From contig CAYZJP010000007.1 of the NCBI GenBank assembly GCA_964478755.1, positions 1,117 through 65,116 on the forward strand: a stretch of DNA of 64,000 nucleotides. The letters run 5' to 3'. Each line of letters opens with the position of its first letter. The first letter of the stretch is position 1. This DNA comes from an uncultured Klebsiella sp. Lineage in GTDB: Bacteria > Verrucomicrobiota > Verrucomicrobiia > Limisphaerales > SXTU01. A program made the position numbers and the translations under genes. This document shows, piece after piece, positions 41,835 to 63,871 of the stretch. The notes under the pieces are model-generated. The model was not told the origin of the DNA, did no database searches, and saw only the letters and a program-made list of their open reading frames with translations.

Positions 41835-42641
41835 TCAAGCCTCCTGACCGGCCCAAGCCACCGAGAGAACGCAGTCCGGTCCAATCCAGCTCCGACAGCG
41901 CAGCGCGGGCTGATGGGCGTAACGCCCAACCCACGTTCCACTTTCTCCAGGTCGAATTTCCGCCAGTGCCAGCGTCTCCCACGGACACGCCAGCCCACAG
42001 CCGAGCGCCTTGCCCAGTGCTTCGCGCGCCGTCCAGAGCAACAGCAGAGCGGTCACTTCCGGGAGCGACACACTTCTCAACCAAGCTTCCTCGAAAGACG
42101 ACAGCGGCACGGCCTTCCGAACTGTCTCCGCACGCCGCGCGTCAATGAGCTCCAAGTCCACCCCGGCTTTCTGTCCACGGGGAAAGGCGACTGCCACGCC
42201 GCGTCCGTTCACGTGGCTCAGGCTCACGCCAAACTCACAATCCACCGGTGCCAGCGCCATCGGTTCGCCGTGCGAGCCGTTCGTGATTTCGATTACGCGC
42301 AACTTGCGAGCGATGCCCTCTACCTCTCCCCCGGTCAAGAAGTGATTTGGGATGAGAGGGTGGTTTATGCCGGGCGCGTGTGCTTCTTCCACGCACGCCA
42401 CAAGAGCCAGCTTCGCTGAGAGTCGTCCCAACGAGAAATTATCGCGTGGCTGGCCAGACTTGAACACGCCGGCGCGCAGGGATTCAGCGCGGGTCAAAAA
42501 ATTTCCCGGCGAAACCTCCGCGAAATCCGCCAAACCCGCGTGGGCAAACCACGCCGTCCACGCCGGTTCTTCCAGCGCCAAGCGCACGGCGCGCTCAGTG
42601 AGCGGGCGTGGTGCGACGAGCGTTTGCCAGTCGGGAATCAT
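41835..42641 (-). CDS. Sfp-type 4'-phosphopantetheinyl transferase
   Basis: Track ORF is 41835..42923, trimmed to ATG 42641 (MIPDWQ...). That ATG overlaps the oleD stop by 1 nt (TGATG). Contains GVDLELID and WTAREALGKALG (W/KEA motif). Confidence 0.75.
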   Translation of the reverse strand: MIPDWQTLVAPRPLTERAVRLALEEPAWTAWFAHAGLADFAEVSPGNFLTRAESLRAGVFKSGQPRDNFSLGRLSAKLALVACVEEAHAPGINHPLIPNHFLTGGEVEGIARKLRVIEITNGSHGEPMALAPVDCEFGVSLSHVNGRGVAVAFPRGQKAGVDLELIDARRAETVRKAVPLSSFEEAWLRSVSLPEVTALLLLWTAREALGKALGCGLACPWETLALAEIRPGESGTWVGRYAHQPALRCRSWIGPDCVLSVAWAGQEA

Positions 42642-43633
42642 CAGCCGCCTCGCTTCAAGTGTTCCGCCAGTCGGCGCAAACCTTCCTCCGTGGACACGCG
42701 CGGCACGTAGCCAAAATCGCGCTTCGACGCGGAGATGTCGAACCAGTGCGCCGTCGTCATTTCGCGCACGACGAAGCGCGTCAGGCGCGGCTCGCGCCCG
42801 CTGCGGGTCAGCGTGTGCGCCATCTCGAAACACGCCGCGAGGAACATCGCCAGCCCCGCCGGCACCGTCCGCGTGACCGGCGGCAACGCGGCGGCCGCGA
42901 GCAGGCGGTTCACCATTTCCCACAGTTCAACCGGCTCGCCGTTCGAGATGAAGTAAGCCTTGCCCGCGCACGGCGAACCCGGCGCGAGCGCATCCGCTGC
43001 GAGCAGGTGCGCGTCCGCGGCGTTCTCGATGTAAATCGTGTCCACGAGCTTTTGCCGCGAGCCGATGCGGCGGAGCTGTCCGGCCTTTGCGCGCGCGATG
43101 AGGCGCGGCAGCAAGTGATTGTCGCCCGGCCCCCAGATGAGATGCGGACGCAGCGCGACCGTCGCGAGCTGCGGGCTGTTTGCGGCGAGGACAAGTTTTT
43201 CCGCCGCCGCCTTCGTGCGCGGATAGTGCGCCTCGAAGTGCGATGGAATCGGAACCGATTCATCCACGCCCTCCATGTCGCACCCGTCGAAGATCACGCT
43301 CGGCGAACTGGTGTGAACGAGCTTTCGCACACCGTGCCGGCGGCACGCCGCGATGACGTTCTCCGTGCCGGTGACGTTCGCGCGATGATATTCCTCGTAA
43401 GCGCCCCAAACGCCCGCCTTCGCCGCGACGTGAAAAACGATGTCACAGCCCGCAGCCGCAGCAGAAACGGCCACAGCAACACCGATGTCGCCGCGCACTT
43501 GTTCGACGCCGAGTTCGCGCAACGCCGTGTGCTCGTGCCGCGAAAAGCTCCGCACATCCGCACCGCGCTGCCGCAGCGCGCGCGCGATGGCGAGCCCGAG
43601 AAATCCGCCGCCGCCGGTGACGAGTGCCTTCAT
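42641..43633 (-). CDS. oleD: NAD(P)-dependent 3-beta-HSD/epimerase-family reductase, OleD-like
   Basis: 330-aa ORF: MKALVTGGGGFLGLAIARAL (Rossmann fold), YPRTKAAAE (YxxxK). Sits with the oleABC-like genes. Confidence 0.7.
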   Translation of the reverse strand: MKALVTGGGGFLGLAIARALRQRGADVRSFSRHEHTALRELGVEQVRGDIGVAVAVSAAAAGCDIVFHVAAKAGVWGAYEEYHRANVTGTENVIAACRRHGVRKLVHTSSPSVIFDGCDMEGVDESVPIPSHFEAHYPRTKAAAEKLVLAANSPQLATVALRPHLIWGPGDNHLLPRLIARAKAGQLRRIGSRQKLVDTIYIENAADAHLLAADALAPGSPCAGKAYFISNGEPVELWEMVNRLLAAAALPPVTRTVPAGLAMFLAACFEMAHTLTRSGREPRLTRFVVREMTTAHWFDISASKRDFGYVPRVSTEEGLRRLAEHLKRGG

Positions 43634-43647
43634 GAATATCTAAAGTT

Positions 43648-43794
43648 GGGGAGCGCGCCCGCCCCGGGCGCCGCCAACCGCGCCCTCGCGGCTGGCCGTT
43701 GCGCGCACGAACACGAAAACTTTCCGTGCATCGGACGCGCCCGGCGGTCGCCGCGAGGGCGCGGCGACCGACACGCGGGGCGCGTGTGCTCCCC
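43648..43794. repeat. PAL-1 element, intergenic copy (oleC-oleD gap)
   Basis: Starts GGGGAGCGCGCCCGCCCC and ends GGGGCGCGTGTGCTCCCC. About 147 bp, the same length class as the coding copies. Confidence 0.7.
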
Positions 43795-43882
43795 GGCGCG
43801 GGAACTCGGCGAGCGGAAAATATTGTGACGTTGCATGCCCATGAGTCCTTTGCAAAATCGCGTTTTATCCCAATGAAAATAG

Positions 43883-44031
43883 CCCAGCGCTTTAGCGCTG
43901 GGAAGACGGAGGGTTGGCGTGGCGCAAGTCCCGCCGGGACGAAAGAAATTCTGTCGTCCCTGACGGGACTCATTTTGTGCTCGCGCCCTGATTACCCAGC
44001 GTTGAAACGCCGGGCTATCATCAACGGCGTT
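43883..44031. repeat. PAL-6 multi-hairpin element, intergenic (oleC-oleD gap)
   Basis: Hairpins CCCAGCGCtttaGCGCTGGG (43883-43902), GTCCCgccGGGAC, GTCCCtgacGGGAC and AACGCC...GGCGTT (44006-44031). Single copy in the window. Its family status rests on my memory of similar PVC intergenic repeats. Confidence 0.5.
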
Positions 44032-44045
44032 TTTGAGAGGTTTCC

Positions 44046-45716
44046 TCATGTCCGTTGCTTCGCCGCCCACACGGCGAGTTTCTCGCGGAAGATTTTTGCG
44101 TTGTGCCGGATGTCCACGGGGAACGCGGGGTGAAACAAAATGTTCCGAATCTCGCGAGTGTGCGCGTGCGCCGCGCCGAGCGAGAGAAGTTCACTTCGCA
44201 GTTTGCCTTCGTCCTGTCCGCGCGCGCCGGCCTCCAGCTCGATGCAAATTACCGGCTCCGTATCGTCACCATTCGGCACGCCCACTAGCGCGCTGCGAAA
44301 GACAGCGGGATGCGTGTTGAAAATCGCCTCGCACGGAATCGTGAACAGCGTCCCGGCCCGCGTGGTGACGCGGTGTGATTTGCGCCCGCAAAACCAGATG
44401 CGCCCGCGCTCGTCGAGCCAGCCCACGTCGCCCATGCGATGCCAGAACGCGCCGCTTGCGCCGGAGATTTTTGCATGCGCAGTGGCATCAGCGCGATTGA
44501 AGTAGGCCCGCGACGCTTGCGCGGCCTGCACAGCGATTTCGCCGATCTCGCCGCGTGGAAGTTCAAGCGAATCGCTCCACGCGGCGATGGGTTCGTCCGT
44601 GATGCGGATGATTTTCACCGCAAGACCAGGCACGGGCGCACCGACGCAGACGCCCTTGCCGTGGTCGGTCTGCGCGCGGGTCTCGTTGAGAATTTCGTCA
44701 CTGCCGATGCTGGCGACGGGCAGGCACTCGGTCGCGCCGTAGGGCGTGAAGACCTGTGCACCATCAGAAAGCAGTTTCGCGAAACGACCGAGCACCTTCG
44801 CAGGCACGGGCGCGCCAGCGGAGATGACGCGGCGCAGCGTCGGGAGTTTTGTATTGTGTAATTCGCCGTGGCGGCCCACGCGGTTGATGAGCGCGGGCGA
44901 GCCGAACATGTTCGTCACGCGGAAGCGCTCGATGGCGGCGATGATTTTTACCGGATCGGCCTGCGCGGGGCGCGTGAAGTCCATTTCCGGCAGCACCTCG
45001 GTCATGCCGAGCGCGGGGCCGAACAGCGCGAAGAGCGGGAACGTGGGCAAATCAATCTCACCCGGCTGAATGTTGTAGAGCCGGCGCACCTGCTCGATTT
45101 GCGCGGAAAACATCTCGTGCGTGTAGAGGACGCCCTTGGGTGCGCCGGTGCTGCCGCTGGTGAACAGAATGGCGGCGGTTTCTTTTGGCTCGGAGGCAAC
45201 AGTGTTGAAAGGATGGTCCGAATCAAAGCCAAGTTGTTCGATTTGCTTCAATGTATGCCCGCCCCAGAACCATTTTCTGCCAACCGTGACCGGGCGATAA
45301 ATCGTTCTTGCTCCCCAGCCGAGCAGCACGCGCGCGGCGTGCGCTTTGGGAACGCCGATGAAGGCTTCCGGCTCCGCCTCCGCGAAGCAGTTGGCGAAAT
45401 TTTTCAAACCGATACCCGGATCAATCAGCACCGGCACTGCGCCGACACGGAACAGCGCGAAGGTCAGCGCGAAGAAGTCGAGGCTCGGCGGCACCATCAG
45501 CGCGGTGCGTGTTTCTCGCGTTATTCCGATGCGCTCAAGTCCGGCAGCGATCCAGTGGGATTTTTCATTCAGTTCGCGAAAGGTGAGTTGCGAATAAGTG
45601 AGCTTCCCAAAGCCATCACGCTGCGGCGCAATGACGGCGGGCGTGTCCGGCTGCCGCCCAGCCATCACGGCGAGGTGCGACGAGATGTTTGCTGTAGCCG
45701 TCGCAGGCACGTTCAC
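44046..45716 (-). CDS. oleC: AMP-dependent synthetase family, OleC-like (beta-lactone synthetase)
   Basis: 556-aa ORF with the adenylation motif ILFTSGSTGAPKGVLYTH. Its GTG start overlaps the oleB stop by 4 nt (GTGA). Confidence 0.75.
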   Translation of the reverse strand: MNVPATATANISSHLAVMAGRQPDTPAVIAPQRDGFGKLTYSQLTFRELNEKSHWIAAGLERIGITRETRTALMVPPSLDFFALTFALFRVGAVPVLIDPGIGLKNFANCFAEAEPEAFIGVPKAHAARVLLGWGARTIYRPVTVGRKWFWGGHTLKQIEQLGFDSDHPFNTVASEPKETAAILFTSGSTGAPKGVLYTHEMFSAQIEQVRRLYNIQPGEIDLPTFPLFALFGPALGMTEVLPEMDFTRPAQADPVKIIAAIERFRVTNMFGSPALINRVGRHGELHNTKLPTLRRVISAGAPVPAKVLGRFAKLLSDGAQVFTPYGATECLPVASIGSDEILNETRAQTDHGKGVCVGAPVPGLAVKIIRITDEPIAAWSDSLELPRGEIGEIAVQAAQASRAYFNRADATAHAKISGASGAFWHRMGDVGWLDERGRIWFCGRKSHRVTTRAGTLFTIPCEAIFNTHPAVFRSALVGVPNGDDTEPVICIELEAGARGQDEGKLRSELLSLGAAHAHTREIRNILFHPAFPVDIRHNAKIFREKLAVWAAKQRT

Positions 45717-46609
45717 TCCTTGACCGGGTGCTTCGCGAAGAATTGCTTCACCAGCGCGAGGATTTCATCGGGCTTGTCTTCGAGCACGAGATGGCTGGCG
45801 TCGGGGAAGCGATGCACTTCGGCCTGCGGCAAAATGCGTTTCCACTCGGCGAGGAAATGATCGTCGAAGACCCAGTCCTTCGCGCCCCAGCACATAAGCG
45901 CGGGCGTGCGCTGAAATTGCGGGAGCTTGGCCTGCACTTCGCTGACGAGCGCGTAGGTCGGGTGGTCGGGCACCAGCGGGATGTCCTGCACGAATCGGAG
46001 CTGCGCGAGCCGGCTCGCCTTCGCGGTGCTGGGCGCGAGATATGGGTCGCGCTCGACGGGCGACAGCTCAGGCGTGGCGACGCCCCGGCGCGTGACGAGG
46101 CGCGCGAAGAGGCCGGCGCGGCGGATGAGCAGCGCGTCGAGCGGCGTGTTGCGGCAGAGCCAGAGCGATGGCGGAAGTTTTTTTGTCTTCGGCAAATGGA
46201 ACGCCGCCGTGTTCAGCAGCACAAGGCGCGCAATGCGGTGCGGGTTCCGCGCGGCCCACGTCATGCCGATCATTCCGCCCCAGTCGTGCAGCACGAGGGT
46301 GATTTTCTCCGGCAGTTTCGCGTGCGCGATGAGCGCGTCGAGGTCGGCGACGCGACGCGCGAGCGTGAATTCGTAGCGCGAATCGTCCGGCTTGTCCGAG
46401 AGGCCGCAGCCGATGTGGTCCAGCGCGAGAACGCGGCACTGATCGCGCAGGCCAAGCACGAGCCGGCGGTAGTAGAAGGACCACGTCGGATTGCCATGAA
46501 CCATCACGACGGCGTCACCGCCCGCGCCCTCGTCGAGGTAGTGCAGGCCGATGCCGTCGCGGTCAAGGAAGTGGCCGACGAAGGGATAGTGTTCGCGGCG
46601 GAAGTTCAC
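45713..46609 (-). CDS. oleB: Alpha/beta hydrolase (haloalkane-dehalogenase-like), OleB-like
   Basis: Track ORF is 45713..46996 and overlaps oleA. I trimmed it to GTG 46609, which overlaps the oleA stop (GTGA); GTG 46612 is equally possible. Contains VMVHGNPTWSFYYR and VLHDWGGMIG (Asp nucleophile context). Confidence 0.7.
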   Translation of the reverse strand: MNFRREHYPFVGHFLDRDGIGLHYLDEGAGGDAVVMVHGNPTWSFYYRRLVLGLRDQCRVLALDHIGCGLSDKPDDSRYEFTLARRVADLDALIAHAKLPEKITLVLHDWGGMIGMTWAARNPHRIARLVLLNTAAFHLPKTKKLPPSLWLCRNTPLDALLIRRAGLFARLVTRRGVATPELSPVERDPYLAPSTAKASRLAQLRFVQDIPLVPDHPTYALVSEVQAKLPQFQRTPALMCWGAKDWVFDDHFLAEWKRILPQAEVHRFPDASHLVLEDKPDEILALVKQFFAKHPVKE

Positions 46610-47658
46610 CACTCCACCCCCATCATCATGCAGTTTAGGCCGCTGCCGATGCCAAGAAAGGCCACGCGCTGGCCGAGCTTCAGCACGCCGCGCTCGTCGG
46701 CGATGGCGGCGGTCACGGGCAGCGCGGCGGTGCCCATGTTGCCGAGGAAGCGGAAGGTCGTGTAGTCCTTCTCGCGCGGCACGCCGATGGATTTCAAGAT
46801 TGCTTCCTGATGCCCGCTGCCGACCTGATGGCAAATCACCTTGTCCACGCTCGCGGCGCTCCAGTTCATCGTGTCGAGAAAAACCTTCCAAGTCTGCACG
46901 CCGAGCGCGACGCCGTTCTTCAGCACGGCGACCGAGTCCGTGGCCATGAACTGTTCGTGCAATCCGTCGCGGCCCGGCTTGATGCCCCAGCGGCAAAGCT
47001 GGTGAAATTCCGGCGCGACCTCGGACACCGCGCCGAGTAGCCGATGCCCACGCAAATTCGAGAAGGAACCATCTGTGAGCAGCACCGCGACCGCGCCGGA
47101 GCCGCCCGTGAACGTGGCCAGCGCGGGCGCGAACTCATCCATGCCGCCGGCACCGTTGAGCATCCGCGCGAGGGCGATCTCGTTGATCTCCCGCGCGCTT
47201 TCGCACGAGACGACGAGGCCGGCGCGGATGTGGCCTAACTCAATGCGATTGGCGACCTCAATCATCCCGTTGAGCACGCCGAGGCAGGCGTTGCTCACGT
47301 CATACACAAACGCGCCGCCGCGCATCCCGATGCCATCGGCGACGGCGCACGCGGTGGCCGGCTCGAAATTTTCGCGGCAGACACCGCAGTAGAGCAGCAT
47401 CCCTAGGTCGCCCGCGCCGAGGTTCGCCTTCTGCAATGCCCTCTTCGCGGCGGCCGTCGCGCCTTGCGAGAGCGGCGTGCCCGGCTCCCACCAGCGGCGC
47501 TCTGAAATGCCCGTCCACGCCTCAAGCTGGCCGGGCTGGATACCGAGCCGCGCGAAGGCGGGCGCGAGCCGTTCCTCCAACTCCGCCGTGGTGACCACGA
47601 CCGGCCCCAACTCGTAGCCGAGCGAGGTGATGTGGACGCGTTGATATTCGGGCATCAT
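46606..47658 (-). CDS. oleA: Thiolase-superfamily FabH-like condensing enzyme, OleA-like
   Basis: 350-aa ORF with active-site context VYDVSNACLGVLNG and C-terminal GSGLNCMMMGVEW. First gene after the REP-A element that follows pfaC. Confidence 0.7.
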   Translation of the reverse strand: MMPEYQRVHITSLGYELGPVVVTTAELEERLAPAFARLGIQPGQLEAWTGISERRWWEPGTPLSQGATAAAKRALQKANLGAGDLGMLLYCGVCRENFEPATACAVADGIGMRGGAFVYDVSNACLGVLNGMIEVANRIELGHIRAGLVVSCESAREINEIALARMLNGAGGMDEFAPALATFTGGSGAVAVLLTDGSFSNLRGHRLLGAVSEVAPEFHQLCRWGIKPGRDGLHEQFMATDSVAVLKNGVALGVQTWKVFLDTMNWSAASVDKVICHQVGSGHQEAILKSIGVPREKDYTTFRFLGNMGTAALPVTAAIADERGVLKLGQRVAFLGIGSGLNCMMMGVEW

Positions 47659-47683
47659 AGCAAGGCCGGACTAAGACGAATCA

Positions 47684-47755: not shown

Positions 47756-47767
47756 CAAAGAAAGGTT

Positions 47768-55303: not shown

Positions 55304-55356
55304 GCGCGGGACGCTCGGCGAGTGCGTGAGCGGGGCGGAGTGCGAGTGGGCCGTTT

Positions 55357-55618: not shown

Positions 55619-55643
55619 ATGCAGCTACGGGACGCAACGGGGT

Positions 55644-58600
55644 TCACGCGGGCAGATGGTTCTGGCGGAAGGCTTCGCGGAGGTTCGCGTCCACGACAAA
55701 CTCGTAGCCTTCGCCGAGCGCGAGCAACGCTCCGGCGCGGTCGAAGAATTGCAGGTCGGCCACGGCCACGGGCGTTTCCGCCGAGGTGACGCGCGCGACG
55801 ACGCGGCTGCCGCCGGTCTTCGGGAACGCGGCGAACTGCCGGAAGCTCCGCAGCGCGCACGGCAGCGACGGCGCGGCGCGTTGCGCGGTGCTCCACAAAA
55901 TCATGAGCTGAAACGCGGCATCGAGCGCGAGCGGGTCGGCCAGCCACGCGGGCCGCAGCGGCTGGGCAATCATCTGCTTCGGCGCGGGCGCGGAGCGGAC
56001 GAGCGCGGCGGCGTTCGTCGGATTGCAGACTTCGAGCGCCTCGATGCATTGGAAGTCCGGGCCGTGGAAGAGACGTCCATCGCCATAAACTTTCTCCGAC
56101 AAAATGCCGTTGCGCTTCACGGCGGGCGTGATGCTCGGTGCGGTGGGCAGCGTGTCCGCGAGAAGAATTTCCGCCGTGGCGTGCAGCGTGGATTTGTTGC
56201 CGCCGTTGCGGCTGGTGAATTGCACCGGCACGGCGAGCAGGCCGTCGCGCGGCTGCGGCGGTGCAGCGGAAACGGTGACGTGCGCGGTGGCGTCGCCTTC
56301 GAGGACGAGGCCCTTGAGCACTTTGAAGCCGTCGAAGCCGTGGAAGGCGAGGCCGGGGTTGCCGTGCAGCGCGCCGTGCGCGAGCCACTCGATGATGAGC
56401 GCAGCCGGCAGGACAGCGCGGCCGTTCATGACGTGCGAGACGAGGCAGGGCAGCGCGCGGACGGAAATGTCACGGTCGAACGCGGGGTGGAAACTGGAGG
56501 GGGAACTTACTGGTCCGGGTGGAACGGGCCACTGGCCCGTTGCGGCGGGCGACCCGCCCGCCGCTCGAACTGCGCCCAGTGCGACCCGGTTCGGCTGAAC
56601 GGTGACGGTGCCGAAGCTCGACGGCAGGTTGCCGTCGAGAACGGCCAAGTTGGCCGTTCCACCCTGAACAGGCTGGGCCAACGCGAGGATTTCGACGGCT
56701 TCGCCGGTGGGGGCGAGCACGTCGCGGACGAAGCAATCGGCTCCGGCGTCCGGCTCGATGAGGCCGACGCCTTCGCGCTCGAAGATTTTGCGGAGGCCGT
56801 CGTTGACCATGCCGCCGTTCCACGGGCCCCAGTTGAAGGCGACCACGCGGCACTGCGGGCGGCGGCGGGCCTCGGCCTGCGCCATCTTGTTCAGCACTTC
56901 GTTAGCGGCGGCGTAATCCACCTGGCCGGTGCGGCCGAAGCGTCCGGTGTAGCTGGAGAAAAGTGCGATGAGGCGAAGGTCGTCGGTCGCGGTCGCGGCG
57001 AGGAGGTTGCGAAGGCCGTGGACTTTCGTGCCATAGACGAGGTCGAATTGCTCCTCGGTCTTTTGCTCAATGAGTTTGTCGGCGAGCACGCCCGCGCCGT
57101 GGATGAGGCCGCGAATCGGGCCGTGCGCGGCGCGGACTTCCGCGAGCGTGGCGGTGACGGTGGCGGCATCGCGGACATCGAGCGTGGCGTAGTGCGCGAG
57201 CGCGCCGGTCGCGCGAATCTCAGCGAGGTGCGTGCGGATTTCGCGCTGGGCCATGACTTCGCGGAACTTCGCTTCCAGCCGCTTCGGCGAGCGGTCGCCG
57301 TCGGCGTGCGCGAGCAGGGCCTTCTTAATGTCGGCTTCGCTCGTGAGGCCGACGAGCCAGTGCGGCTCGGCGTCGGGCAACGTGCTGCGGCCCAGCAGGA
57401 GGAAGCGCGGCTGGTGGCGGCGAGCGAGTTCGAGGACGGACGTGGCGGTGACGCCGCGCGCGCCGCCGGTGACGACGACGAGGTCGCCGCGCTGGAGGGC
57501 GGGCGCGGGGTTGTCGAGCACGGGGGCGGTCTCGATTTCGAGGCTGTAGCGCTGACCGCCGAAGAGGCCAACCTCGATTGGGCCGGCGCGGAAGATTTCC
57601 TCGGTGATTTGGTTCGCGAGTTCGGTGCCGCTGGCCGCGCCGGGGTCGAGGTCGAGAGCTTTGCAGTGAACTTCCGGCCACTCGTGGCGCGCGGTTTTCA
57701 CGAGGCCAGCGAGGCCGCCGCTGACGACGTCGGCGGTCGCGTTCATCACGCCGAGGCCGAAGAGTCCGTCGAGGCGTGAGGCGGAGACGAGCACGGCGGC
57801 TCCGCTGCGACCAGCCGCGCGCAGCGAGGGCGCAGCGACTTGGATGAGACGGAAGGCCGACTTGAGGAAAGCGTCGCCGCCGGACGCAGCGGGCGCAAGC
57901 AGAACGAGCGCGGCGGGCAACGGGGCGTTGCGGTCGGCGAGCAGTTCGGTGGGCGCGCCGCGACGGACGGTGAGGCCGCGTTGCTCAAGGTTCTTGACGA
58001 GCGCGGCGGTGAGGCTGGTGCCATCATCGGTGAGCCAGACGAGTGAGCCGGGCGCGAGCGTGACGTGCGGGCGCGTGTCGGCGGCTGGGAAAGGCGTAGG
58101 GCGGAGGATTTGGCGGAAGAGCGTCGGCCTGGGTGGCACGGGCGACTCGCCCGTGACGGTCGGCGACCCGCCGACCGGAATGGCAGAAGGCAAGCGAGTG
58201 GGAAGCTGCGCTGGCTTCGCAACGGACGCGTTCGTCGTTTCGTCCGGCGAGTCGCCGGACGGGACAGGCCAGTGGCCTGTTCCACCCGGAGCAGAACCCG
58301 CGCACAGGAAATCCACGACCTCCTGCAGGGTGCGAAGGGAGCCGAGGTGCTCGGGTTTGATTTCGGGAGCGCTGGGAAGTTGCGTGCGGAGCGCGGCCAT
58401 GATTTCGACGCGCTTGATGGAGTCCACGCCGAGGTCGGAATCCAGCCCCATGCCGAGGTTCAACATCTCGAGGGGGTAGCCGGTTTTTTCAGAGACAACT
58501 TGAAGGAGAACGCGACTGGCTTCGGCAGCGTCAACACCGGCGGAGACAAATGCATCCCGTGCGCTGTCCGCCGCTGTAACGCCACGCACTTCAACCGTGG

Positions 58601-61600
58601 AAGAGCCGCCCGCGCAGAGGAAGTTCACCACGTCCTGTAAAGTCTGCAACGTGCCGAGGTGCTCGGGTTTCACCTCCGGCGCATCGGGCAGGCGCGCGCG
58701 CAACGCGGCCATGATCTCGACGCGCTTGATGGAATCAATGCCGAGGTCGCTGTCCAGGCCCATGCCGAGCGTGAGCATCTCGGCGGGGTAGCCGGTTTTT
58801 TCGGAAACAATTTCGAGAACAGACGTCGCAATGCGGGAAATGTCCGCAGTTTGTGGAACGCGCGACTCCGGCGGGCAGTTCCCATCGTCGTGCTGGGATC
58901 TCTGTTCGACCGGCTTTTCATTGCGAACGACGACTGAAGTCTGAGCGGCAAATGAATCGGGCGCGACGCCCGATTCAGCACGCGAGACGCGCGCGCTCCC
59001 CAACGCTTCACGCTGCATCGGAGCCGATGAAACGGGCGCAGGAGCGATTCTCTGCACAGCGTCCGGCGCGGCGGCGGGCGCGAGCGGCGGCAGGCCGAGC
59101 AATTCGCGGCGCTGGCCCAGCAGCGATTCGAGCGAGCGGCGGGCGGCCTCCTGGTTTGCGAGAAATTGCTGGTGCAACTGCGCGGTCTGCTCCTGCAGCT
59201 TTTGCAGAGCGAGCATTCCCTGCTGCGCCGTTTGCAGCGCGGCGGCAACGTCACCGGAAAGCGGCGCGGCAGGCGAAGCAGCGCGTTGCTCCGGTGAAGT
59301 GTTGCTGTTCGCATTGACCATTTCGCGGCGCGGCAGCGGCGGACGTTCCGGCGGGCGCGTCATGCGGACGTTCGCGCCGGAGACGGGCACAGTGAACGCG
59401 GGCTTCGCGTTCTTTACCGGCGCGGCGGGCGGGACAGTTTCCCACTTCGTCAAATCCACCGCGTGACCGAGCGCGGCAACGCGGCAGAGCGCGATGGCGA
59501 GATCGAACGTGCCGTTGCGCGTGCCGCGCGAGGCGTCGAGCGCGATGGCATCCACGTCGCGGCCCGGCAGAATCGCCTGCACGAGGTCGCACAGCACGTG
59601 GCCGGGGCCGAGTTCGAGGAAGGTCGTAACGCCGTCCGCGTGCATCGTCTCCATTTGCTTGATGAAGTCCACGGGGCGCACCATCTGGCTGGCCAGCAGG
59701 TCGCGCGCGGGCTTCGCGCCCGGCGGGTATTCCCTGGCCGTCGAGTTCGCATAGACAGGGATGCGGCCCTTGGTGAAAGGAATTTCCTCCAGCACGGCGG
59801 CGAACGGCTCGCGCGCGTCGGCGACGAGCGAACTGTGAAACGCGGCGGCAACCGGCAGCACGCGGGCGCGGATGGAGCGCTTCGCGGCCTCGCCGGCGGC
59901 GTATTCGATCTGAAGCTTCGGCCCGGCGAGCACGAACTGCGTGGGGGAATTGCGGTTGGCGATGACGAGCTGCGAATCGTTCAGGCGCGCGAGTTCGGCG
60001 ACGGTTTTTTCCTCCGCCTGCACGGCGAGCATGGAGCCGCGGTCGCTGTGGCCGTTGCGGTTCGCCATCAGCCGGCCGCGCACGTTCGAGAGCAGGTGCA
60101 GCGACTCGCGCTTCAACCGGCCCGCGCCGTAGAGCGCGGCGAGTTCACCGTAGCTGTGGCCGGAAGTCGCTTCGATCGTGATGCCGAAGGATTCCGCAAG
60201 GCTCAACGCGGCGACGCTCACCGCGCCGAGCGCGGGCTGCGCGACGTCGGTGGCCTTCAATGCTTCTTCCTGCGCGTGACGGGCTTCGTCGTTGAAGGCG
60301 GGATGCGGGTAGATGAAGTCGCTGAGGCGTGGCTGCGCCGCCTCGGCGCAGCGGGGTGCGGGCGACGCCGCGTCGCCCGTTCGTGCAGCGGGGCGCTGCG
60401 CCCACGCGGACTGCGACGAGGGCGTCGCAGCCACGGCGAAAGCAGCGTCAGCGTCGGCCAGCGCGTCGAGCACTTCGGGGAACTGGCACGCGAGGTCGCG
60501 GAACATCCCGACGTATTGCGAGCCTTGACCGGGGAAAAGCGCGCCCAGTTTGCCGCGCCGCTCGCCGGAGCCGAAGCAGACGCCGGTGGGCAAGGCCCAG
60601 GAAGTTTTGTCGGGATGTTTGTCGAGCATCGCGAGCGCAGCATCGCGGAGCGGGGCGAGAGAGAATTGTTCGGAAGCCACCCCCTCACCCCGGCCCTCTC
60701 CCCCGGCGGGGGCGAGGGAGGAGGAGGCGGTGGGTTTTGACGACGATTCTTTTGAAAGCGGAAGCAACAGGCGGAACTTCGCTTCGATGCGGAAGGACTG
60801 GCGCGAGGCGTGGGCGCGGCGGCGAAGGTCAGGCCAGGGAAGTTCAGTAGGCAGCGCGGCGAGTTGCGCGCGGAGGTCGGAAAGTTTTTCGGCGCAGAGC
60901 GCAAGGATTTCCACGTCGCCGTTCCAATCGGGTGCTTGGCGCGCGCCGCCGTGTTCTTCGAGGACGCAGTGAAAATTCGTGCCGCCAAATCCAAAGGCGC
61001 TCACGCCAGCGCGGCGTGGATGATTCGCGCGCGGCAGCCACGGGCGCTTCGTCGTGTTCACGTAGAACGGCGAGCCGGGCGCGGCGTCATCGAGCGGCTG
61101 GGAAACTTTGATGGTGGGCGGCAGGACTTTTCGTTCGAGTGCGAGCGCGGCCTTGATGAGTCCGGCGACGCCGGCGGCGGCCTTCGTGTGGCCGATCTGC
61201 GACTTCACCGAACCGAGCGCGGCCCAAGCGCCATCTGACTTCGCGGCGGAAAAAACTTTCGTGAGCGAACGCAGCTCCGTGGCGTCGCCGACTTTGGTGC
61301 CGGTGCCGTGGGCTTCGATGAGTTCAACCGTGTCAGCGGTGACATCCGCGTTGGTGTAGGCGCGTTCGATGGCCTGGATTTGGCCTTCGGAGCGCGGCTC
61401 GTAAATCGCGCCGCCGCGTCCGTCGCTCGACGAGCCGATGCCCTTGAGCACGCAGTAAATTTTGTCACCGTCGCGCTCGGCGTCGGTGAGGCGCTTGAGC
61501 ACGACCATGCCGAGTCCTTCGCCGAGGATGGTGCCGTCGCAATTTTTGTCGAAGGGCTTCGCGTCCCCCGTCGGCGAGAGCGCCGGGGTTTTGCTGAAGC

Positions 61601-62330
61601 ACATGAACATGAAGATGTCGTTGAACGTGTCCACGCCGCCGGTGATGACCATGTCCGAGCGGCCGGACTGCAACTCCAGCGCGGCCAGGTGCAGCGCGGC
61701 GAAGCTGCTCGCGCACGCGGCGTCCACGACGCAGTTCGTGCCGCCGAGGTCGAGGCGCGCGGCGATGCGGCCCGCGGCGACGTTGCCGAGCAAACCGGGA
61801 AAGGAATTCTCCTGCCACGGCACGTAGCCGTCGGCGATGCGCTGCACGACATCCTCGGCGAGTTCATCATCAACGCCGGCTTCTTTCAACGCGCGCCGCC
61901 AGATTGGATGACCGAGCCGCGCGCCGAGCGGGATGACGAGTTCGAGCGCGCCGGTGACGCCGAGGAGCACGCTGGTTTTCTGGCGGTTGAAGGGCTTCTT
62001 GTCGTAGCCCGCGTCGGCGAGCGCCTGTTTCGCGGCGACCATGCCGAGCAGTTGCGTCGTGTCGGTCGCCTCGATGTCCTTCGGCGCGATGCCGAATTCC
62101 ATCGGGTTGAAGTCCACCGGCGAAATGAAACCGCCGCGACGCGCGTAGGTCATGTCGGGCGACTTCGGGTCGGCGTTGAAGAAATCGTCGGTCTTCCAGT
62201 GCGTGCGATCGGGCAGCGGCGTAATGGCGTCGGCGCCGGACTTGATGTTGCGCCAGTAGGCCTGGAGGTCATCCGCCTTCGGGAAGATGCAACTGAGGCC
62301 GACAATGGCGAGGGGGGCGGACTGGCTCAT
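55644..62330 (-). CDS. pfaA: PUFA-synthase PfaA-like megasynthase: KS - MAT - ACP - ACP - KR - PKS-type DH
   Basis: Track ORF is 55644..62534, trimmed to ATG 62330 (MSQSAPLAIVGLSCIFP), which overlaps the pfaD stop by 1 nt (TGATG). KS: DAACASSFAAL, EAHGTGTKVGD, SQIGHTKAAAG. MAT: FPGQGSQYVGM, GHSYGE. Two ACPs: LGMGLDSDLG[IV]DSIKRVEIMAAL. KR: VVVTGGARGVTA. DH: LVSHVMNGRAVLPAA. Confidence 0.9.
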   Translation of the reverse strand: MSQSAPLAIVGLSCIFPKADDLQAYWRNIKSGADAITPLPDRTHWKTDDFFNADPKSPDMTYARRGGFISPVDFNPMEFGIAPKDIEATDTTQLLGMVAAKQALADAGYDKKPFNRQKTSVLLGVTGALELVIPLGARLGHPIWRRALKEAGVDDELAEDVVQRIADGYVPWQENSFPGLLGNVAAGRIAARLDLGGTNCVVDAACASSFAALHLAALELQSGRSDMVITGGVDTFNDIFMFMCFSKTPALSPTGDAKPFDKNCDGTILGEGLGMVVLKRLTDAERDGDKIYCVLKGIGSSSDGRGGAIYEPRSEGQIQAIERAYTNADVTADTVELIEAHGTGTKVGDATELRSLTKVFSAAKSDGAWAALGSVKSQIGHTKAAAGVAGLIKAALALERKVLPPTIKVSQPLDDAAPGSPFYVNTTKRPWLPRANHPRRAGVSAFGFGGTNFHCVLEEHGGARQAPDWNGDVEILALCAEKLSDLRAQLAALPTELPWPDLRRRAHASRQSFRIEAKFRLLLPLSKESSSKPTASSSLAPAGGEGRGEGVASEQFSLAPLRDAALAMLDKHPDKTSWALPTGVCFGSGERRGKLGALFPGQGSQYVGMFRDLACQFPEVLDALADADAAFAVAATPSSQSAWAQRPAARTGDAASPAPRCAEAAQPRLSDFIYPHPAFNDEARHAQEEALKATDVAQPALGAVSVAALSLAESFGITIEATSGHSYGELAALYGAGRLKRESLHLLSNVRGRLMANRNGHSDRGSMLAVQAEEKTVAELARLNDSQLVIANRNSPTQFVLAGPKLQIEYAAGEAAKRSIRARVLPVAAAFHSSLVADAREPFAAVLEEIPFTKGRIPVYANSTAREYPPGAKPARDLLASQMVRPVDFIKQMETMHADGVTTFLELGPGHVLCDLVQAILPGRDVDAIALDASRGTRNGTFDLAIALCRVAALGHAVDLTKWETVPPAAPVKNAKPAFTVPVSGANVRMTRPPERPPLPRREMVNANSNTSPEQRAASPAAPLSGDVAAALQTAQQGMLALQKLQEQTAQLHQQFLANQEAARRSLESLLGQRRELLGLPPLAPAAAPDAVQRIAPAPVSSAPMQREALGSARVSRAESGVAPDSFAAQTSVVVRNEKPVEQRSQHDDGNCPPESRVPQTADISRIATSVLEIVSEKTGYPAEMLTLGMGLDSDLGIDSIKRVEIMAALRARLPDAPEVKPEHLGTLQTLQDVVNFLCAGGSSTVEVRGVTAADSARDAFVSAGVDAAEASRVLLQVVSEKTGYPLEMLNLGMGLDSDLGVDSIKRVEIMAALRTQLPSAPEIKPEHLGSLRTLQEVVDFLCAGSAPGGTGHWPVPSGDSPDETTNASVAKPAQLPTRLPSAIPVGGSPTVTGESPVPPRPTLFRQILRPTPFPAADTRPHVTLAPGSLVWLTDDGTSLTAALVKNLEQRGLTVRRGAPTELLADRNAPLPAALVLLAPAASGGDAFLKSAFRLIQVAAPSLRAAGRSGAAVLVSASRLDGLFGLGVMNATADVVSGGLAGLVKTARHEWPEVHCKALDLDPGAASGTELANQITEEIFRAGPIEVGLFGGQRYSLEIETAPVLDNPAPALQRGDLVVVTGGARGVTATSVLELARRHQPRFLLLGRSTLPDAEPHWLVGLTSEADIKKALLAHADGDRSPKRLEAKFREVMAQREIRTHLAEIRATGALAHYATLDVRDAATVTATLAEVRAAHGPIRGLIHGAGVLADKLIEQKTEEQFDLVYGTKVHGLRNLLAATATDDLRLIALFSSYTGRFGRTGQVDYAAANEVLNKMAQAEARRRPQCRVVAFNWGPWNGGMVNDGLRKIFEREGVGLIEPDAGADCFVRDVLAPTGEAVEILALAQPVQGGTANLAVLDGNLPSSFGTVTVQPNRVALGAVRAAGGSPAATGQWPVPPGPVSSPSSFHPAFDRDISVRALPCLVSHVMNGRAVLPAALIIEWLAHGALHGNPGLAFHGFDGFKVLKGLVLEGDATAHVTVSAAPPQPRDGLLAVPVQFTSRNGGNKSTLHATAEILLADTLPTAPSITPAVKRNGILSEKVYGDGRLFHGPDFQCIEALEVCNPTNAAALVRSAPAPKQMIAQPLRPAWLADPLALDAAFQLMILWSTAQRAAPSLPCALRSFRQFAAFPKTGGSRVVARVTSAETPVAVADLQFFDRAGALLALGEGYEFVVDANLREAFRQNHLPA
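56517..56664. repeat. PAL-3 element in-frame in pfaA (KR-DH linker)
   Basis: GGGTGGAACGGGCCACTGGCCCGTTGC ... GGCCAAGTTGGCCGTTCCACCC. Encodes QGGTANLAVLDG...AAGGSPAATGQWPVPPG. Confidence 0.75.
58131..58287. repeat. PAL-3 element in-frame in pfaA (ACP-KR linker), opposite orientation to the 50522 copy
   Basis: GGGTGGCACGGGCGACTCGCCCGTGAC ... GGGACAGGCCAGTGGCCTGTTCCACCC. The sub-hairpins GGCGACTCGCC and GGCCAGTGGCC are swapped end-for-end relative to the other copies. Encodes GGTGHWPVPSGDSPDE...VTGESPVPP. Confidence 0.85.
58321..58830. repeat. Tandem ~312-bp duplication encoding the two ACP domains of pfaA
   Basis: Blocks beginning TCCTGCAGGGTGCGAAGGGAGCCGAGGTGCTCGGGTTT (58321) and TCCTGTAAAGTCTGCAACGTGCCGAGGTGCTCGGGTTT (58633) align over about 190 bp. 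I estimate ~80% identity by eye. Confidence 0.8.
58855..59001. repeat. PAL-1-like (diverged) element in-frame in pfaA (AT-ACP linker)
   Basis: Ends ...GAATCGGGCGCGACGCCCGATTCAGCACGCGAGACGCGCGCGCTCCCC and starts GGAACGCGCGACTCCGGCGGGCAG. Encodes GSARVSRAESGVAPDS...CPPESRVPQ. Confidence 0.6.
60411..60436. repeat. PAL-9 hairpin in-frame inside the pfaA AT domain (part of a ~110-bp insert at 60330-60437)
   Basis: CTGCGACGAGGGCGTCGCAGCCACGG, a 1-nt indel relative to 55594-55618. The flanking hairpins GGCGACGCCGCGTCGCC and GCAGCGGGGCGCTGC belong to the same insert. The insert encodes VAATPSSQSAWAQRPAARTGDAASPAPRCAEAAQPR, between ADADAAFA and LSDFIYP. Confidence 0.75.
60680..60720. repeat. PAL-8 half-element in-frame in pfaA (KS-AT linker)
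   Basis: CCCCCTCACCCCGGCCCTCTCCCCCGGCGGGGGCGAGGGAG. The first ~22 nt are identical to the intergenic copy at 55357. Encodes SLAPAGGEGRGEGV. Confidence 0.8.
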
Positions 62331-63871
62331 CACGTAACAGGCTTTGCGTTCAACAACTCGTGCAGACGACTCGGTTCGATGGGAGCACAATCCGCCTCGC
62401 CCGGCAGCAAGGGAATTCCCTGCATGCGCAGCGCGTGCGCGCGCAGGTGGACCGCAGCTCCGTATATCAAGTTCAGCGCGACGACCTCGGCGCGGCGATT
62501 CTCCGGCTGCGCGAGGAACGTGCCGCGCGTCCACTCATTGAACGCGCCCATCGCCGGCCCGCACCAGATTTGATAGTCCATTACGCGCGACGGCTCGCCG
62601 GCGTTGGCCCAGCGCGAGCTGAGGCCGAGGTAACTGCGGAAGACCAGCGCCATCTGGTGCTTCGCGTCGCGCTCGGCGCGCTCGACTTGCTTCGCATCGC
62701 GCTTGAGCCAGAACTCGCGCGTGGTCCGCCAAGTCTCGTCGAGCGTGGCGCGGAAGAATTGTTTCTCCAACTGCGCGCGGTCCGCCTCGGGAATCGCGTC
62801 GAGGCTCGGATGCGCGCGGTAGAGTTCCCAGAGCTTCGCGGCGCGCATCGGGAACATCGTGCCGCGCTTGAGCACCTGGAGCTTCACACCCATCTCGAAC
62901 ATGTCGGCGGCCGGAGCCATCGCAGTGTCCGCCTGCTCCGCTTGCGCGAGCATCTTGCGCACGACGTCGCTGGAGCCGGACTCGACGCACGCCTGGTTCA
63001 CGGAGCCAGTGACGACGTAAGCCGCGCCCATCGCGAACGCCGCCGCCAAGCCCGACGGCGTGGACAAACCACCAGCCGCACCGACCCGCAGCGGCTGCGC
63101 GTAGCCGAACTTCGCCTGCAGCCGGTCGCGCAGCGCCAGCAGCGTGGGCAACAGCGTGACGAGCGGGCGGTTGTCCGTGTGCCCGGCGGAATCCGCCTCG
63201 CCGGTCACGTCCTGCGCGACGGGGATTTGCGCGGCGAGCGCGGCCTGCTCGCCGGTGAGTTCGCCGGTGCGGACGAGTTCATTCAGCATCTCCGCCGGCG
63301 GCGGTGAGAAGAATTGCGTCGCCACTTCGACGCGCGAGACTTTTGCGATGATGCGGTTGGGCGTTATGATGCTGCCCGCCGCGTCGCGATGAATACCCGC
63401 GACGCGATACCGAACGACGGGCATCGTGAGCCGTAAATAAGCGGACGCTTCGATGAGGCGCACGCCACGGTGATTAAGCAACTCAGCAACGGCAGCCTCG
63501 ATGTCCGGCTCATTCGGGCTGTGGATGAGATTGACTCCGAAAGGCAGGCCGGGAATCTCGCGTTGCAATCGGTCCACCGCAGAGGCGACGCGTTCCGGTC
63601 CAAGGCCGGCTGCGCCGAAGAAGCCGAGCATCCCGCCGCGCGCCATCGCCTCGACCAGTTCGACCGACGCGATGCCATTCGCCATCGCACCGGCCACGTA
63701 AGCGTAACGCAGCCCGTGGTCGCGTCGGAAAGTTGCATCGCCGAGACTGTCTAACACCTGTGTGAGCGAAGGGGACGAGTCGCGTCCGATGGCGCTCGGG
63801 TGCGCGTCGGCGTGACCCCGCCGCGTCGCCGCGCCAGTGGCCGTTTTGGTTTCAGTTTCTAGCTCAATCAT
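62330..63871 (-). CDS. pfaD: PfaD-family enoyl reductase (nitronate-monooxygenase-like TIM barrel)
   Basis: 513-aa ORF with FRRDHGLRYAYVAGAMANGIASVELVEAMARGGMLGFFGAAGL, typical of PfaD. Confidence 0.9.
   Translation of the reverse strand: MIELETETKTATGAATRRGHADAHPSAIGRDSSPSLTQVLDSLGDATFRRDHGLRYAYVAGAMANGIASVELVEAMARGGMLGFFGAAGLGPERVASAVDRLQREIPGLPFGVNLIHSPNEPDIEAAVAELLNHRGVRLIEASAYLRLTMPVVRYRVAGIHRDAAGSIITPNRIIAKVSRVEVATQFFSPPPAEMLNELVRTGELTGEQAALAAQIPVAQDVTGEADSAGHTDNRPLVTLLPTLLALRDRLQAKFGYAQPLRVGAAGGLSTPSGLAAAFAMGAAYVVTGSVNQACVESGSSDVVRKMLAQAEQADTAMAPAADMFEMGVKLQVLKRGTMFPMRAAKLWELYRAHPSLDAIPEADRAQLEKQFFRATLDETWRTTREFWLKRDAKQVERAERDAKHQMALVFRSYLGLSSRWANAGEPSRVMDYQIWCGPAMGAFNEWTRGTFLAQPENRRAEVVALNLIYGAAVHLRAHALRMQGIPLLPGEADCAPIEPSRLHELLNAKPVT

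Follow-up and report, generated by a model that had tools for sequence, protein, structure and literature searches.

Gene content of the cluster

Positions 41835-63871 of the window (the whole 64,000 nt stretch of DNA that was analysed) carry eight genes on the minus strand, in the order pfaD, pfaA, pfaC-like, oleA, oleB, oleC, oleD and an Sfp-type PPTase, in agreement with the order and coordinates given in a first-pass annotation. All eight are uninterrupted and retain their active-site motifs. Family E-values across the cluster range from 1e-9 (PPTase) to 1e-231, and the pfaA and pfaC-like ORFs extend over 6.7 kb and 7.5 kb, respectively, which excludes a chance origin of the gene calls. 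The flanking genes have no relation to the cluster; one encodes a PLP enzyme on the opposite strand, and the hydrolase gene upstream lacks conservation. The genes, in order of transcription, are:

62330-63871, minus strand: pfaD, opening gene of the cluster, FMN-type enoyl reductase (TIGR02814 pfaD_fam, 633.5 bits, cutoff 449)
55644-62330, minus strand: pfaA, 2228 aa, KS-MAT-ACP-ACP-KR-DH (PKS type, PS-DH) by Pfam
47768-55303, minus strand: pfaC-like gene (pfaBC-type fusion), 2511 aa, KS-CLF-AT-(pseudoDH-DH)x2 by Pfam
46606-47658, minus strand: oleA, head-to-head (non-decarboxylative Claisen) condensing thiolase, activity predicted from sequence
45713-46609, minus strand: oleB, haloalkane-dehalogenase-like alpha/beta hydrolase, predicted beta-lactone decarboxylase (Abhydrolase_1, 110 bits)
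44046-45716, minus strand: oleC, predicted olefin beta-lactone synthetase of the ANL family (PRK09274, 767 bits, cutoff 478)
42641-43633, minus strand: oleD, predicted NAD(P)H-dependent 2-alkyl-3-oxoalkanoate reductase of the 3-beta-HSD/SDR family (Pfam 3Beta_HSD, 195 bits)
41835-42641, minus strand: Sfp-type 4'-phosphopantetheinyl transferase (PPTase, PfaE role), last gene of the cluster (Pfam ACPS PF01648, 36.7 bits, cutoff 25)

PfaD contains the Pfam domains NMO and FabD_helical_ins. The start of pfaA was placed at the ATG at 62330, giving the N-terminus MSQSAPLAIVGLSCIFP; the mechanical ORF extends to 62534. PfaA shows the motifs DAACASS, HGTGT and GHSYGE and two copies of LGxDS, and the PfaC-like protein shows DAACASS, HATGT, NIGH and GYSLGE. 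The latter has four FabA-like stretches, two of which carry the catalytic His motif (aa 2006 and 2409), giving DH2, and it matches PDB 6riw at 342 bits, an entry deposited solely as 'ORF10' that we take to be a PUFA-synthase KS-CLF structure. The components of a Type I Pfa system are all present: a PfaD-family ER, a PfaA with KS-MAT-tandem ACP-KR, and a KS-CLF protein that combines paired FabA-type DH domains with a fused AT. Judged by gene order and domain content (PMC3098273, PMC4882568), the synthase is predicted to belong to Type I (secondary lipid) of Shulse and Allen.

Against the OleA structures of Xanthomonas campestris (PDB 3ROW, 3S21, 4KU2 and others) the oleA product scored 198.6 bits, with 36% identity to X. 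campestris OleA, compared with 73.4 bits for the best FabH. With model NF006720 it reached 466 bits (X. campestris OleA itself, 475), and FabH models gave 72-102 bits. Residues C125, E99, H277 and N307 align with C143, E117, H285 and N315 of the X. campestris enzyme, where Glu117 is the OleA-specific base, and all four are invariant in 18 relatives. Together, these scores and the conserved catalytic residues identify the thiolase as OleA, and a FabH/KASIII identity was rejected.

The assignments of the next three genes as OleB, OleC and OleD, also proposed in the first-pass annotation, are supported. OleB has its Asp nucleophile within HDWGG. It scored 137-154 bits with haloalkane dehalogenase NCBIfam models, every one below cutoff, and no OleB-specific NCBIfam model matched; its best PDB matches are dehalogenases and unnamed hydrolases. 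Homologues at 58-90% identity carry the JGI name cis-3-alkyl-4-acyloxetan-2-one decarboxylase, and these support the OleB assignment. For OleC and OleD the top NCBIfam models are olefin-specific. OleC matched OlefBLtnSynXan and OlefBLtnSynShew over its full length (689.7 and 689.0 bits; genus-level cutoffs 900 and 850; next family 188), and OleD matched NF042422 oxyalk_red_OleD over residues 1-325 (447.7 bits, cutoff 580; next family HpnA, 148). With the Shewanella-specific models the scores were 689 bits for OleC and 418 bits for OleD. As neither reaches its curated equivalog cutoff (689 bits for OleC, cutoffs 850-900; 448 bits for OleD, cutoff 580), both proteins are judged to be divergent members of their families. 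The PPTase contains the motifs GVDLE and WTAREALGK and had no NCBIfam matches.

Gene junctions, spacers and palindromic elements

Read from the sequence, the pfaD stop overlaps the pfaA start within TGATG. The oleD/PPTase junction overlaps in the same way (TGATG), and the oleA/oleB and oleB/oleC junctions each overlap at GTGA, so that oleB is overlapped at both ends. The four overlapping junctions represent translational coupling. An earlier count of five such junctions was not borne out, the same source having listed only these four. The remaining genes are separated by spacers:

55304-55643: pfaA-pfaC spacer, 340 bp, with GC-rich inverted repeats of the 'ccctcaccctaaccctctccctccgggagaggg' type
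47659-47767: pfaC-oleA spacer, 109 bp, with a long inverted repeat of family CACAGATGAAACACAGATTGAACACAG
43634-44045: oleC-oleD spacer, 412 bp, with an E1 palindromic element at 43648-43794 and, on the minus strand, a terminator-like hairpin at 43883-43902

All three contain palindromic repeats, one of which belongs to a dispersed family of elements. Further copies of the CACAGATGAAACACAGATTGAACACAG family occur in the window at 8165-8255, 9566-9700 and 11489-11633. The E1 element in the oleC-oleD spacer, 15 bp upstream of oleD, has a folding energy of -119 kcal/mol.

Palindromic elements of about 150 nt are also found in frame within the pfaA, pfaC and valyl-tRNA synthetase genes. Those in the two megasynthase genes, which carry at least nine copies or fragments, include:

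58853-59001 (approximate), 58131-58287 and 56517-56664: an E1-like and two E2 elements, in frame in linkers of pfaA (span 56517-59001)
54672-54824: E2, an in-frame insertion within the PfaC KS domain (aa ~156-209)
53359-53507: E1, in frame in PfaC (aa ~596-650), terminal inverted repeat GGGGAGCGCACGC, MFE -85 kcal/mol
50522-50678 and 50161-50309: E2 and E1, both in frame, in the linker between AT and DH of PfaC

The main insertions all lie in inter-domain linkers, with one exception. The E2 element at 54672-54824 splits the Pfam KS match, and PDB 6riw aligns query residue 211 to chain residue 161; among the relatives, this insertion is shared solely with locus L041. The E1 element at 53359-53507 is absent at the DNA level from L041, L013, L047 and L011. 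Relatives bear in-frame insertions of their own. The peptides encoded by these elements in PfaA and PfaC may be translated and tolerated, or may even serve as linkers.

Conservation of gene order in related loci

The pfaD-pfaA-pfaC order is general among 80 pfaD-anchored metagenome loci. Among 77 related genome loci, whose records are labelled as at least five phyla, 67 have the C-terminal end of pfaC immediately ahead of oleA in the same orientation, with a median gap of 34 bp (60 bp or less in 43 loci). Downstream of oleA, an OleB homologue follows in 67/73 loci, OleC is present in 54/63 and OleD in 48/57, and a PPTase-homologous ORF directly follows oleD in about half (24/47). The order pfaC-oleA-oleB-oleC-oleD is strongly conserved.

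The spacers of the present cluster are much reduced in these relatives. In 35 relatives a median of 49 nt separates the aligned ends of pfaA and pfaC, falling to 2-11 nt in the closest relatives. The pfaC-oleA spacer is merely 8 bp in L001, L002, L004 and L013, and most relatives have 2-8 bp between oleC and oleD. Since relatives lack these spacers, a tight operon appears to be the ancestral state.

If the spacer palindromes serve to terminate or attenuate transcription or to affect RNA stability, the cluster would not be one operon. The strong hairpins could split it into up to four transcription units (pfaD-pfaA, pfaC, oleABC and oleD-PPTase), an arrangement that is quite possible, if not the expected one. 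It is favoured by the lengths of the spacers (340, 109 and 412 bp), by the long inverted repeat between pfaC and oleA, by the terminator-like hairpin with a T-tract at 43902-43883, and by the stable E1 fold so close to oleD. On the other hand, a scan for sigma-70-like promoters, which may not suit this phylum, found none in any spacer, the relatives point to an ancestral tight operon, and REP-type hairpins are common inside operons without terminating transcription (PMC3733652). We infer that the eight genes are transcribed as a single unit.

Comparison with known systems

The myxobacterial pfa1-pfa2-pfa3 genes reportedly have the same arrangement as here, with the ER gene first, then KS-AT-ACPn-KR-DH and KS-CLF-AT-DH2. 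Myxobacterial Pfa3 is said to end in an AGPAT domain that passes the PUFA to lipids, with no ole genes there; by Pfam, this domain is absent from the present PfaC-like protein. X. campestris has a homologous OleA of the same NCBIfam family, and its OleB, OleC and OleD have the same roles as here. In contrast to the present cluster, its OleABCD receives acyl chains from ordinary type II FAS, is not known to be accompanied by pfa genes, and yields mono-unsaturated or branched olefins.

The chemistry of Shewanella oneidensis MR-1 (pfaEABCD and oleABCD) resembles that proposed here, in that Pfa-supplied acyl chains pass through OleABCD to C31:9, a product dependent on pfa in Shewanella (PMC6463001). 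Its pfa and ole genes are at separate loci, however, and follow the order pfaA-B-C-D with a separate PfaB; the Type A pfaA has 4-6 ACPs (Shulse and Allen), compared with two here, and the system also supplies EPA for membranes and involves a thioesterase, PfaT (PMC6463001). In Photobacterium profundum SS9, pfa and ole are chromosomal neighbours as in the present cluster, but they form two distinct operons that flank the thioesterase gene pfaT (orf6), and the pfa genes are arranged in the canonical gammaproteobacterial way (PMC6463001).

The closest parallel is Geobacter bemidjiensis Bem, which has the tandem arrangement pfaD-A-B-C-oleA-B-C-D-pfaE and makes hentriacontanonaene, C31:9 (Yoshida 2016, PMC4882568). 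It shares the order from ER to PPTase, an AT-carrying pfaBC-type fusion, ole genes directly downstream and the PPTase in last position, a likeness drawn from the published description, no Geobacter locus being among the 80 related loci listed. The cited papers place it in the Deltaproteobacteria, whereas the present cluster is from the Limisphaerales (Verrucomicrobiota), and the palindromic elements in spacers and linkers are a feature of the present cluster. Shulse and Allen (2011) had described ole genes as 'often linked' to these clusters and proposed the Type I cluster as the supplier of olefin precursors (PMC3098273). The first-pass annotation had presented the pfa and ole genes as fused here and separate in Shewanella; their contiguity is confirmed, but the implied novelty is overstated because the linkage was already published in 2011 and 2016. 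The pfa-oleABCD-PPTase layout is already known, having been published for Geobacter, and the present cluster is a sound but ordinary example of it.

Predicted pathway and alternatives

From its gene content, the cluster probably encodes a dedicated Pfa-fed polyolefin pathway in this uncultured member of the Limisphaerales (Verrucomicrobiota). In keeping with this reading, no thioesterase, AGPAT domain or acyl-CoA ligase is encoded within it. Following established knowledge of the families, the PPTase would convert the two ACP domains of PfaA to the holo form, and PfaA, the PfaBC-type protein and PfaD would use malonyl units for the iterative, oxygen-free synthesis of a polyunsaturated acyl chain with methylene-interrupted double bonds. 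In Shewanella, the Pfa-made chain for this route is 16:4n-3. OleA would join two polyunsaturated acyl thioesters head-to-head, giving a 2-alkenyl-3-oxo acid, OleD would reduce the 3-oxo group, OleC would close the beta-lactone using ATP, and OleB would decarboxylate the lactone to leave a central cis double bond. The output would be a C31:9-like polyene. With only two ACPs in PfaA, against 4-6 in Type A pfaA clusters (Shulse and Allen), chain length and yield may differ. Direct channelling of the acyl chains to an olefin rather than to phospholipids, as first proposed from the gene order, is likewise predicted.

A dual-use synthase is unlikely, although it has precedents. Most of the Pfa output would then be long-chain PUFA destined for membrane phospholipids, and only a share of the flux, in the form of a 16:4-type intermediate, would reach Ole, as in Shewanella. 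Contiguity would in this case reflect co-regulation rather than dedicated channelling. One Pfa synthase in Shewanella and Photobacterium does provide both EPA and the C31:9 precursor, with the separate thioesterase PfaT modulating both (PMC6463001), and Shulse and Allen left a stand-alone product of pfa homologues possible (PMC3098273). Against this, the cluster has neither a separate PfaB nor an AGPAT domain or thioesterase; PfaA carries just two ACPs; pfaC and oleA nearly abut in most relatives; and the products of such clusters in anaerobes are 'largely unknown' save for C31:9 (Yoshida 2016, PMC4882568).

The dedicated pathway could also end elsewhere than at a C31:9-like polyene: at a beta-lactone or ketone, or at an olefin of very different length or unsaturation. 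OleC homologues act in beta-lactone natural-product pathways too. The OleC and OleD scores under the equivalog cutoffs, and an ACP number unlike that of Type A pfaA clusters (Shulse and Allen), would suit such a product. We consider this improbable, since OleB is complete and its gene is translationally coupled on both sides, and the same gene order yields C31:9 in G. bemidjiensis.

The in-frame insertions in PfaA and PfaC, one of them inside a KS domain, count against the pathway reading. That these mobile palindromic elements, present in both megasynthase genes, have disabled PfaA or PfaC and left a decaying cluster with no product is nevertheless very improbable, as the 6.7- and 7.5-kb ORFs are uninterrupted, every catalytic motif is intact, the main insertions but one lie in linkers, the essential valyl-tRNA synthetase bears the same kind of insertion, and relatives carry in-frame insertions of their own.

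Genes no more than 8 bp apart in relatives, and a cluster with no release enzyme, would fit a direct handover from the Pfa ACPs to OleA, though a fit is not proof. It is conceivable, if rather doubtful, that the pfaC-adjacent OleA clade receives both acyl chains directly from the ACPs of the Pfa synthase, bypassing any thioesterase or CoA ligase, in which case PfaD-PfaA-PfaC-OleABCD would be a single dedicated hydrocarbon megasynthase with a polyene as its sole output.

Gene content and limits of the cluster

Eight consecutive minus-strand ORFs lie between nt 41835 and 63871 of the window, and each has a domain or family match, confirming the gene content and order given in the first-pass annotation. 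In descending coordinates, and together with the spacers found at the three non-overlapping junctions, they are:

62330–63871, minus strand: pfaD (TIGR02814, 633 bits; cutoff 449)
55644–62330, minus strand: pfaA (start codon ATG at 62330; 2228 aa; N-terminal sequence MSQSAPLAIVGLSCIFP)
55304–55643: pfaA-pfaC spacer, 340 bp, with GC-rich inverted repeats
47768–55303, minus strand: pfaC-like gene (2511 aa; KS, CLF, AT and four FabA-like stretches)
47659–47767: pfaC-oleA spacer, 109 bp, with a long inverted repeat
46606–47658, minus strand: oleA (matches to OleA structures and NCBIfam)
45713–46609, minus strand: oleB (haloalkane-dehalogenase-like hydrolase)
44046–45716, minus strand: oleC (olefin beta-lactone synthetase models)
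43634–44045: oleC-oleD spacer, 412 bp, with a palindromic element and a terminator-like hairpin
42641–43633, minus strand: oleD (oxyalk_red_OleD model)
41835–42641, minus strand: PPTase (Pfam ACPS; motifs GVDLE and WTAREALGK)

Stop and start codons overlap at pfaD/pfaA and oleD/PPTase (TGATG in both) and at oleA/oleB and oleB/oleC (GTGA in both); the five overlaps claimed previously were a miscount. PfaA carries KS, MAT (GHSYGE), two ACP (LGxDS at aa 1197 and 1301), KR and PKS-type DH domains. In the PfaC-like protein the KS motifs are DAACASS, HATGT and NIGH and the AT motif is GYSLGE. Two of the four FabA-like stretches have the catalytic His motif (at aa 2006 and 2409), which corresponds to the common (pseudoDH-DH)x2 arrangement.

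Downstream of the PPTase gene is a PLP-dependent enzyme on the opposite strand (40751–41809). The window includes 129 bp of sequence upstream of pfaD, and an identical contig (L081) was used to extend it by 1.2 kb. In the extension is the incomplete ORF of an alpha/beta hydrolase (L081 nt 3–1151; Hydrolase_4/Peptidase_S9-like; 382 aa or more), which is on the pfaD strand and has its end 178 bp upstream of pfaD. This hydrolase was considered as a missing thioesterase and rejected, as none of 80 pfaD-anchored metagenome loci has a homologue near pfaD; it probably lies outside the cluster, and the limits were for this reason set at 41835 and 63871. Neither a thioesterase nor an acyl-CoA ligase is encoded within these limits, and an AGPAT domain is also absent. 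Across the whole window, Rfam and tRNA scans gave no matches.

Identity of the Ole proteins

The thiolase can be assigned firmly to OleA on sequence criteria, upholding its earlier description as OleA-like. It scored 198.6 bits against the sequences of Xanthomonas campestris OleA crystal structures (3ROW, 3S21, 4KU2, 5VXD and others) and 73.4 bits against the best FabH, and is 36% identical to X. campestris OleA over its full length. All four catalytic residues are kept in the alignment: C125, H277 and N307 (X. campestris C143, H285 and N315), and the OleA-specific Glu, E99 (X. campestris E117). The top NCBIfam model, NF006720, is labelled '3-oxoacyl-ACP synthase III' and matches the window protein at 466 bits and X. 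campestris OleA at 475 bits; FabH models reach just 72–129 bits for both proteins alike.

Judged by their family matches, OleB, OleC and OleD are divergent proteins whose closest relatives are clearly the olefin enzymes. OleC aligns over its full length with two olefin beta-lactone synthetase models (689–690 bits; narrow cutoffs 850–900) and exceeds the cutoff of their parent family, PRK09274 (767 bits; cutoff 478); the next family reaches 188 bits. OleD matches oxyalk_red_OleD at 448 bits (cutoff 580), followed by HpnA at 148. The proposed OleC-like and OleD-like nature of the ligase and reductase is favoured by olefin models being the best matches, though below their cutoffs. OleB is haloalkane-dehalogenase-like with its Asp nucleophile in the motif HDWGG, and its homologues (58–90% identity) carry the JGI name cis-3-alkyl-4-acyloxetan-2-one decarboxylase. 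PDB searches with OleB, OleC and OleD returned no olefin-pathway structure among the matches, so that comparison with a characterised protein was possible for OleA only.

Linkage of pfa and ole genes in related genomes

The contiguity of pfa and ole genes, a check proposed in the first-pass annotation, was surveyed with an alignment of OleA relatives as query and one genome per species. The best 80 of 311 relatives were taken with 10-kb flanks, a sample of this OleA clade and not a random one of ole clusters, and the eight window proteins were mapped onto these loci by tblastn. The closest are Limisphaerales MAGs (L001–L004 and L041), with OleA identities of 88–91%. Record labels in the best 80 of 311 include Verrucomicrobiota (Limisphaerales, Pedosphaera, Opitutus), Planctomycetota (Schlesneria, Planctopirus, Phycisphaerae), Beta- and Gammaproteobacteria, Elusimicrobia and one acidobacterial MAG.

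The nearest OleA clade is as a rule linked to a Pfa synthase: among the best 80 of 311 relatives, the PfaC C-terminus lies directly upstream of oleA on the same strand in 67 of the 77 species-level genomes that have 600 bp or more of sequence ahead of oleA. Gaps have a median of 34 bp and do not exceed 60 bp in 43 loci. Downstream of oleA in the same best 80 of 311, OleB was found in 67/73 loci, OleC in 54/63 and OleD in 48/57, and an ORF matching a PPTase profile follows straight after oleD in 24 of 47, including all of the closest relatives. The pfaA and pfaC genes abut (aligned ends a median 49 nt apart in the 35 loci where both can be seen), and the order pfaD-pfaA-pfaC is general among the 80 pfaD-anchored metagenome loci.

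One locus (L145) has a variant layout, pfaA-pfaC-oleA followed by pfaD. Some Schlesneria genomes (L062, L063 and L076, including the complete NZ_CP172346) carry an OleA homologue without pfaC, oleB, oleC or oleD within 10 kb, which may be a stand-alone paralogue. Several record titles of cluster-bearing MAGs (L006, L008, L009, L011, L014, L017, L022, L032, L039 and L040) name Klebsiella, Akkermansia muciniphila, Bordetella or Enterobacteriaceae; such labels on MAGs with a Verrucomicrobia-like cluster appear to be taxonomic mis-assignments in the database entries.

Repeats in the spacers

Relatives among the best 80 of 311 frequently have 8 bp between pfaC and oleA and 2–8 bp between oleC and oleD; in L041, the closest of them, insertions are found at different junctions. 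A tightly packed operon is the ancestral state. In the window, the pfaC-oleA spacer is filled by a copy (47672–47768) of an AT-richer intergenic hairpin family (AGCCACAGATGAAACACAGATTGAACACAGA and its inverted copy), with the other three copies at 8165–8255, 9566–9700 and 11489–11633. One exact 18-nt match to this family occurs in a relative (L006), likewise just upstream of oleA. The oleC-oleD spacer holds a 147 nt element (43648–43794; fold of -119 kcal/mol) and a terminator-like hairpin at 43902–43883. A third repeat type, translating as PLPxGEGxxxxxR...LPLPAGEGRGEGER, is found in the pfaA-pfaC spacer, and occurs in frame within PfaC of four relatives, near window aa 987–1042 in L013, L014 and L047 and near aa 2122–2145 in L041. 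A promoter and terminator scan, which is uninformative for this phylum (counts close to shuffled expectation), found no promoter in any spacer.

Palindromic elements inside genes

The pfaA and pfaC ORFs are intact and hold the same element families as the spacers. The two families, E1 (about 149 nt) and E2 (148–157 nt), have GGGGAGCGCACGC and GGGTGGAACGGGC, respectively, as terminal inverted repeats. The copies are:

50161–50309: E1, in pfaC
50522–50678: E2, in pfaC
52188–52330: further palindrome, in pfaC
53359–53507: E1, in pfaC
54672–54824: E2, in pfaC
56517–56664: E2, in pfaA
58131–58287: E2, in pfaA
about 58853–59001: E1, in pfaA
about 31063–31211 and 31754–31829: element copies in the valyl-tRNA synthetase gene (30447–33653, plus strand)

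The pfaA and pfaC elements have minimum free energies of -84 to -99 kcal/mol and are translated in frame, for example as GSARVPRAGLGGSPNS...FQRAAEDGTPAACAP and GGTGDSPVP...GQWPVPP, giving insertions of roughly 50 aa. Alignment with 20 relatives showed these stretches to be insertions missing from most of them, with the same peptide types at other positions in others. The copy at PfaC aa 596–650 is missing at the DNA level from L041, L013, L047 and L011, and the flanking GCTCGNC may be duplicated at this insertion, the alignment being ambiguous. All of the main insertions are in inter-domain linkers except one, at aa 156–209, which interrupts the N-domain of the PfaC KS.

Valyl-tRNA synthetase, which is essential, has in-frame insertions from these same repeat families: its extra segments at aa 214–260 and about 422–451 coincide with element copies and are clean gaps against the Thermus thermophilus enzyme (1GAX). 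Between aa 500 and 596 the protein is longer by roughly another 65 residues. The window also encodes three paralogous large proteins with DUF7133 and a C-terminal cytochrome c domain (2833–5979, 14541–18350 and 21959–25039, plus strand), of the PVC-type heme-binding membrane dehydrogenase-like family; HEAT repeats are present in two of them, and 3-keto-disaccharide hydrolase and GDSL domains in one. Short repeat-derived peptides occur in the first two, at aa 554–579 and aa 541–569.

These elements resemble Rickettsia palindromic elements. A comparable case is the verrucomicrobium Opitutus terrae, for which REPs inside genes were reported in large numbers (Di Nocera et al. 2013, PMC3733652; for a relevant review, see PMC10969869). 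Given that report, in-frame palindromic elements were rejected as new for Verrucomicrobia. They are a known kind of phenomenon, and their density in two megasynthase genes is striking.

Relation to known clusters and proposed pathway

Type I clusters with a pfaBC fusion have been described in Geobacter, Pelobacter, Desulfuromonas and Gemmata, and were proposed to supply the olefin precursor; the same paper notes that G. bemidjiensis makes hentriacontanonaene (C31:9) (Shulse & Allen 2011, PMC3098273). The G. bemidjiensis gene order reported by Yoshida et al. (PMC4882568) is that of the window, pfa and ole operons are adjacent in P. profundum SS9 (Allemann et al. 2019, PMC6463001), and oleABCD is on record for Verrucomicrobia and other PVC genomes (PMC5673642, PMC10176705). 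Because of these published layouts the arrangement is already known; the contrast drawn earlier with the separate loci of Shewanella was correct but does not imply novelty. By its gene content, the locus is best classed as a Type I pfa + oleABCD + pfaE cluster, an already-known class. With the identities, intact motifs, coupling and conserved synteny observed here, its reading as a dedicated pfa-ole olefin cluster is supported, and what is added is the quantified linkage survey and the observation of element insertions.

From established knowledge of the enzyme families, the PPTase would activate the two ACPs and the Pfa proteins would build a polyunsaturated acyl chain anaerobically. Two chains would then be condensed head-to-head by OleA, the 3-oxo group reduced by OleD, a beta-lactone formed by OleC, and decarboxylation by OleB would give a cis-olefin. 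By analogy with Geobacter and Shewanella, the product would be C31:9-like. Opitutaceae TAV2 and Planctomyces maris reportedly produce C31:9 as well, which is not counted here as evidence. We infer that the cluster is co-transcribed and that chains pass from ACP to OleA. The lack of a release enzyme in the cluster and the near-abutting pfaC and oleA of relatives would fit a direct hand-off, without proving it.

With this locus, the layout already published for the pathway is extended to uncultured Limisphaerales of fresh water and soil. The prevalence of linkage in the nearest OleA clade supports the idea that, outside marine Gammaproteobacteria, many homologues of 'PUFA synthase' are in reality hydrocarbon synthases. 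This is relevant to interpreting biogenic hydrocarbon cycling in metagenomes and to picking compact clusters for polyolefin production.
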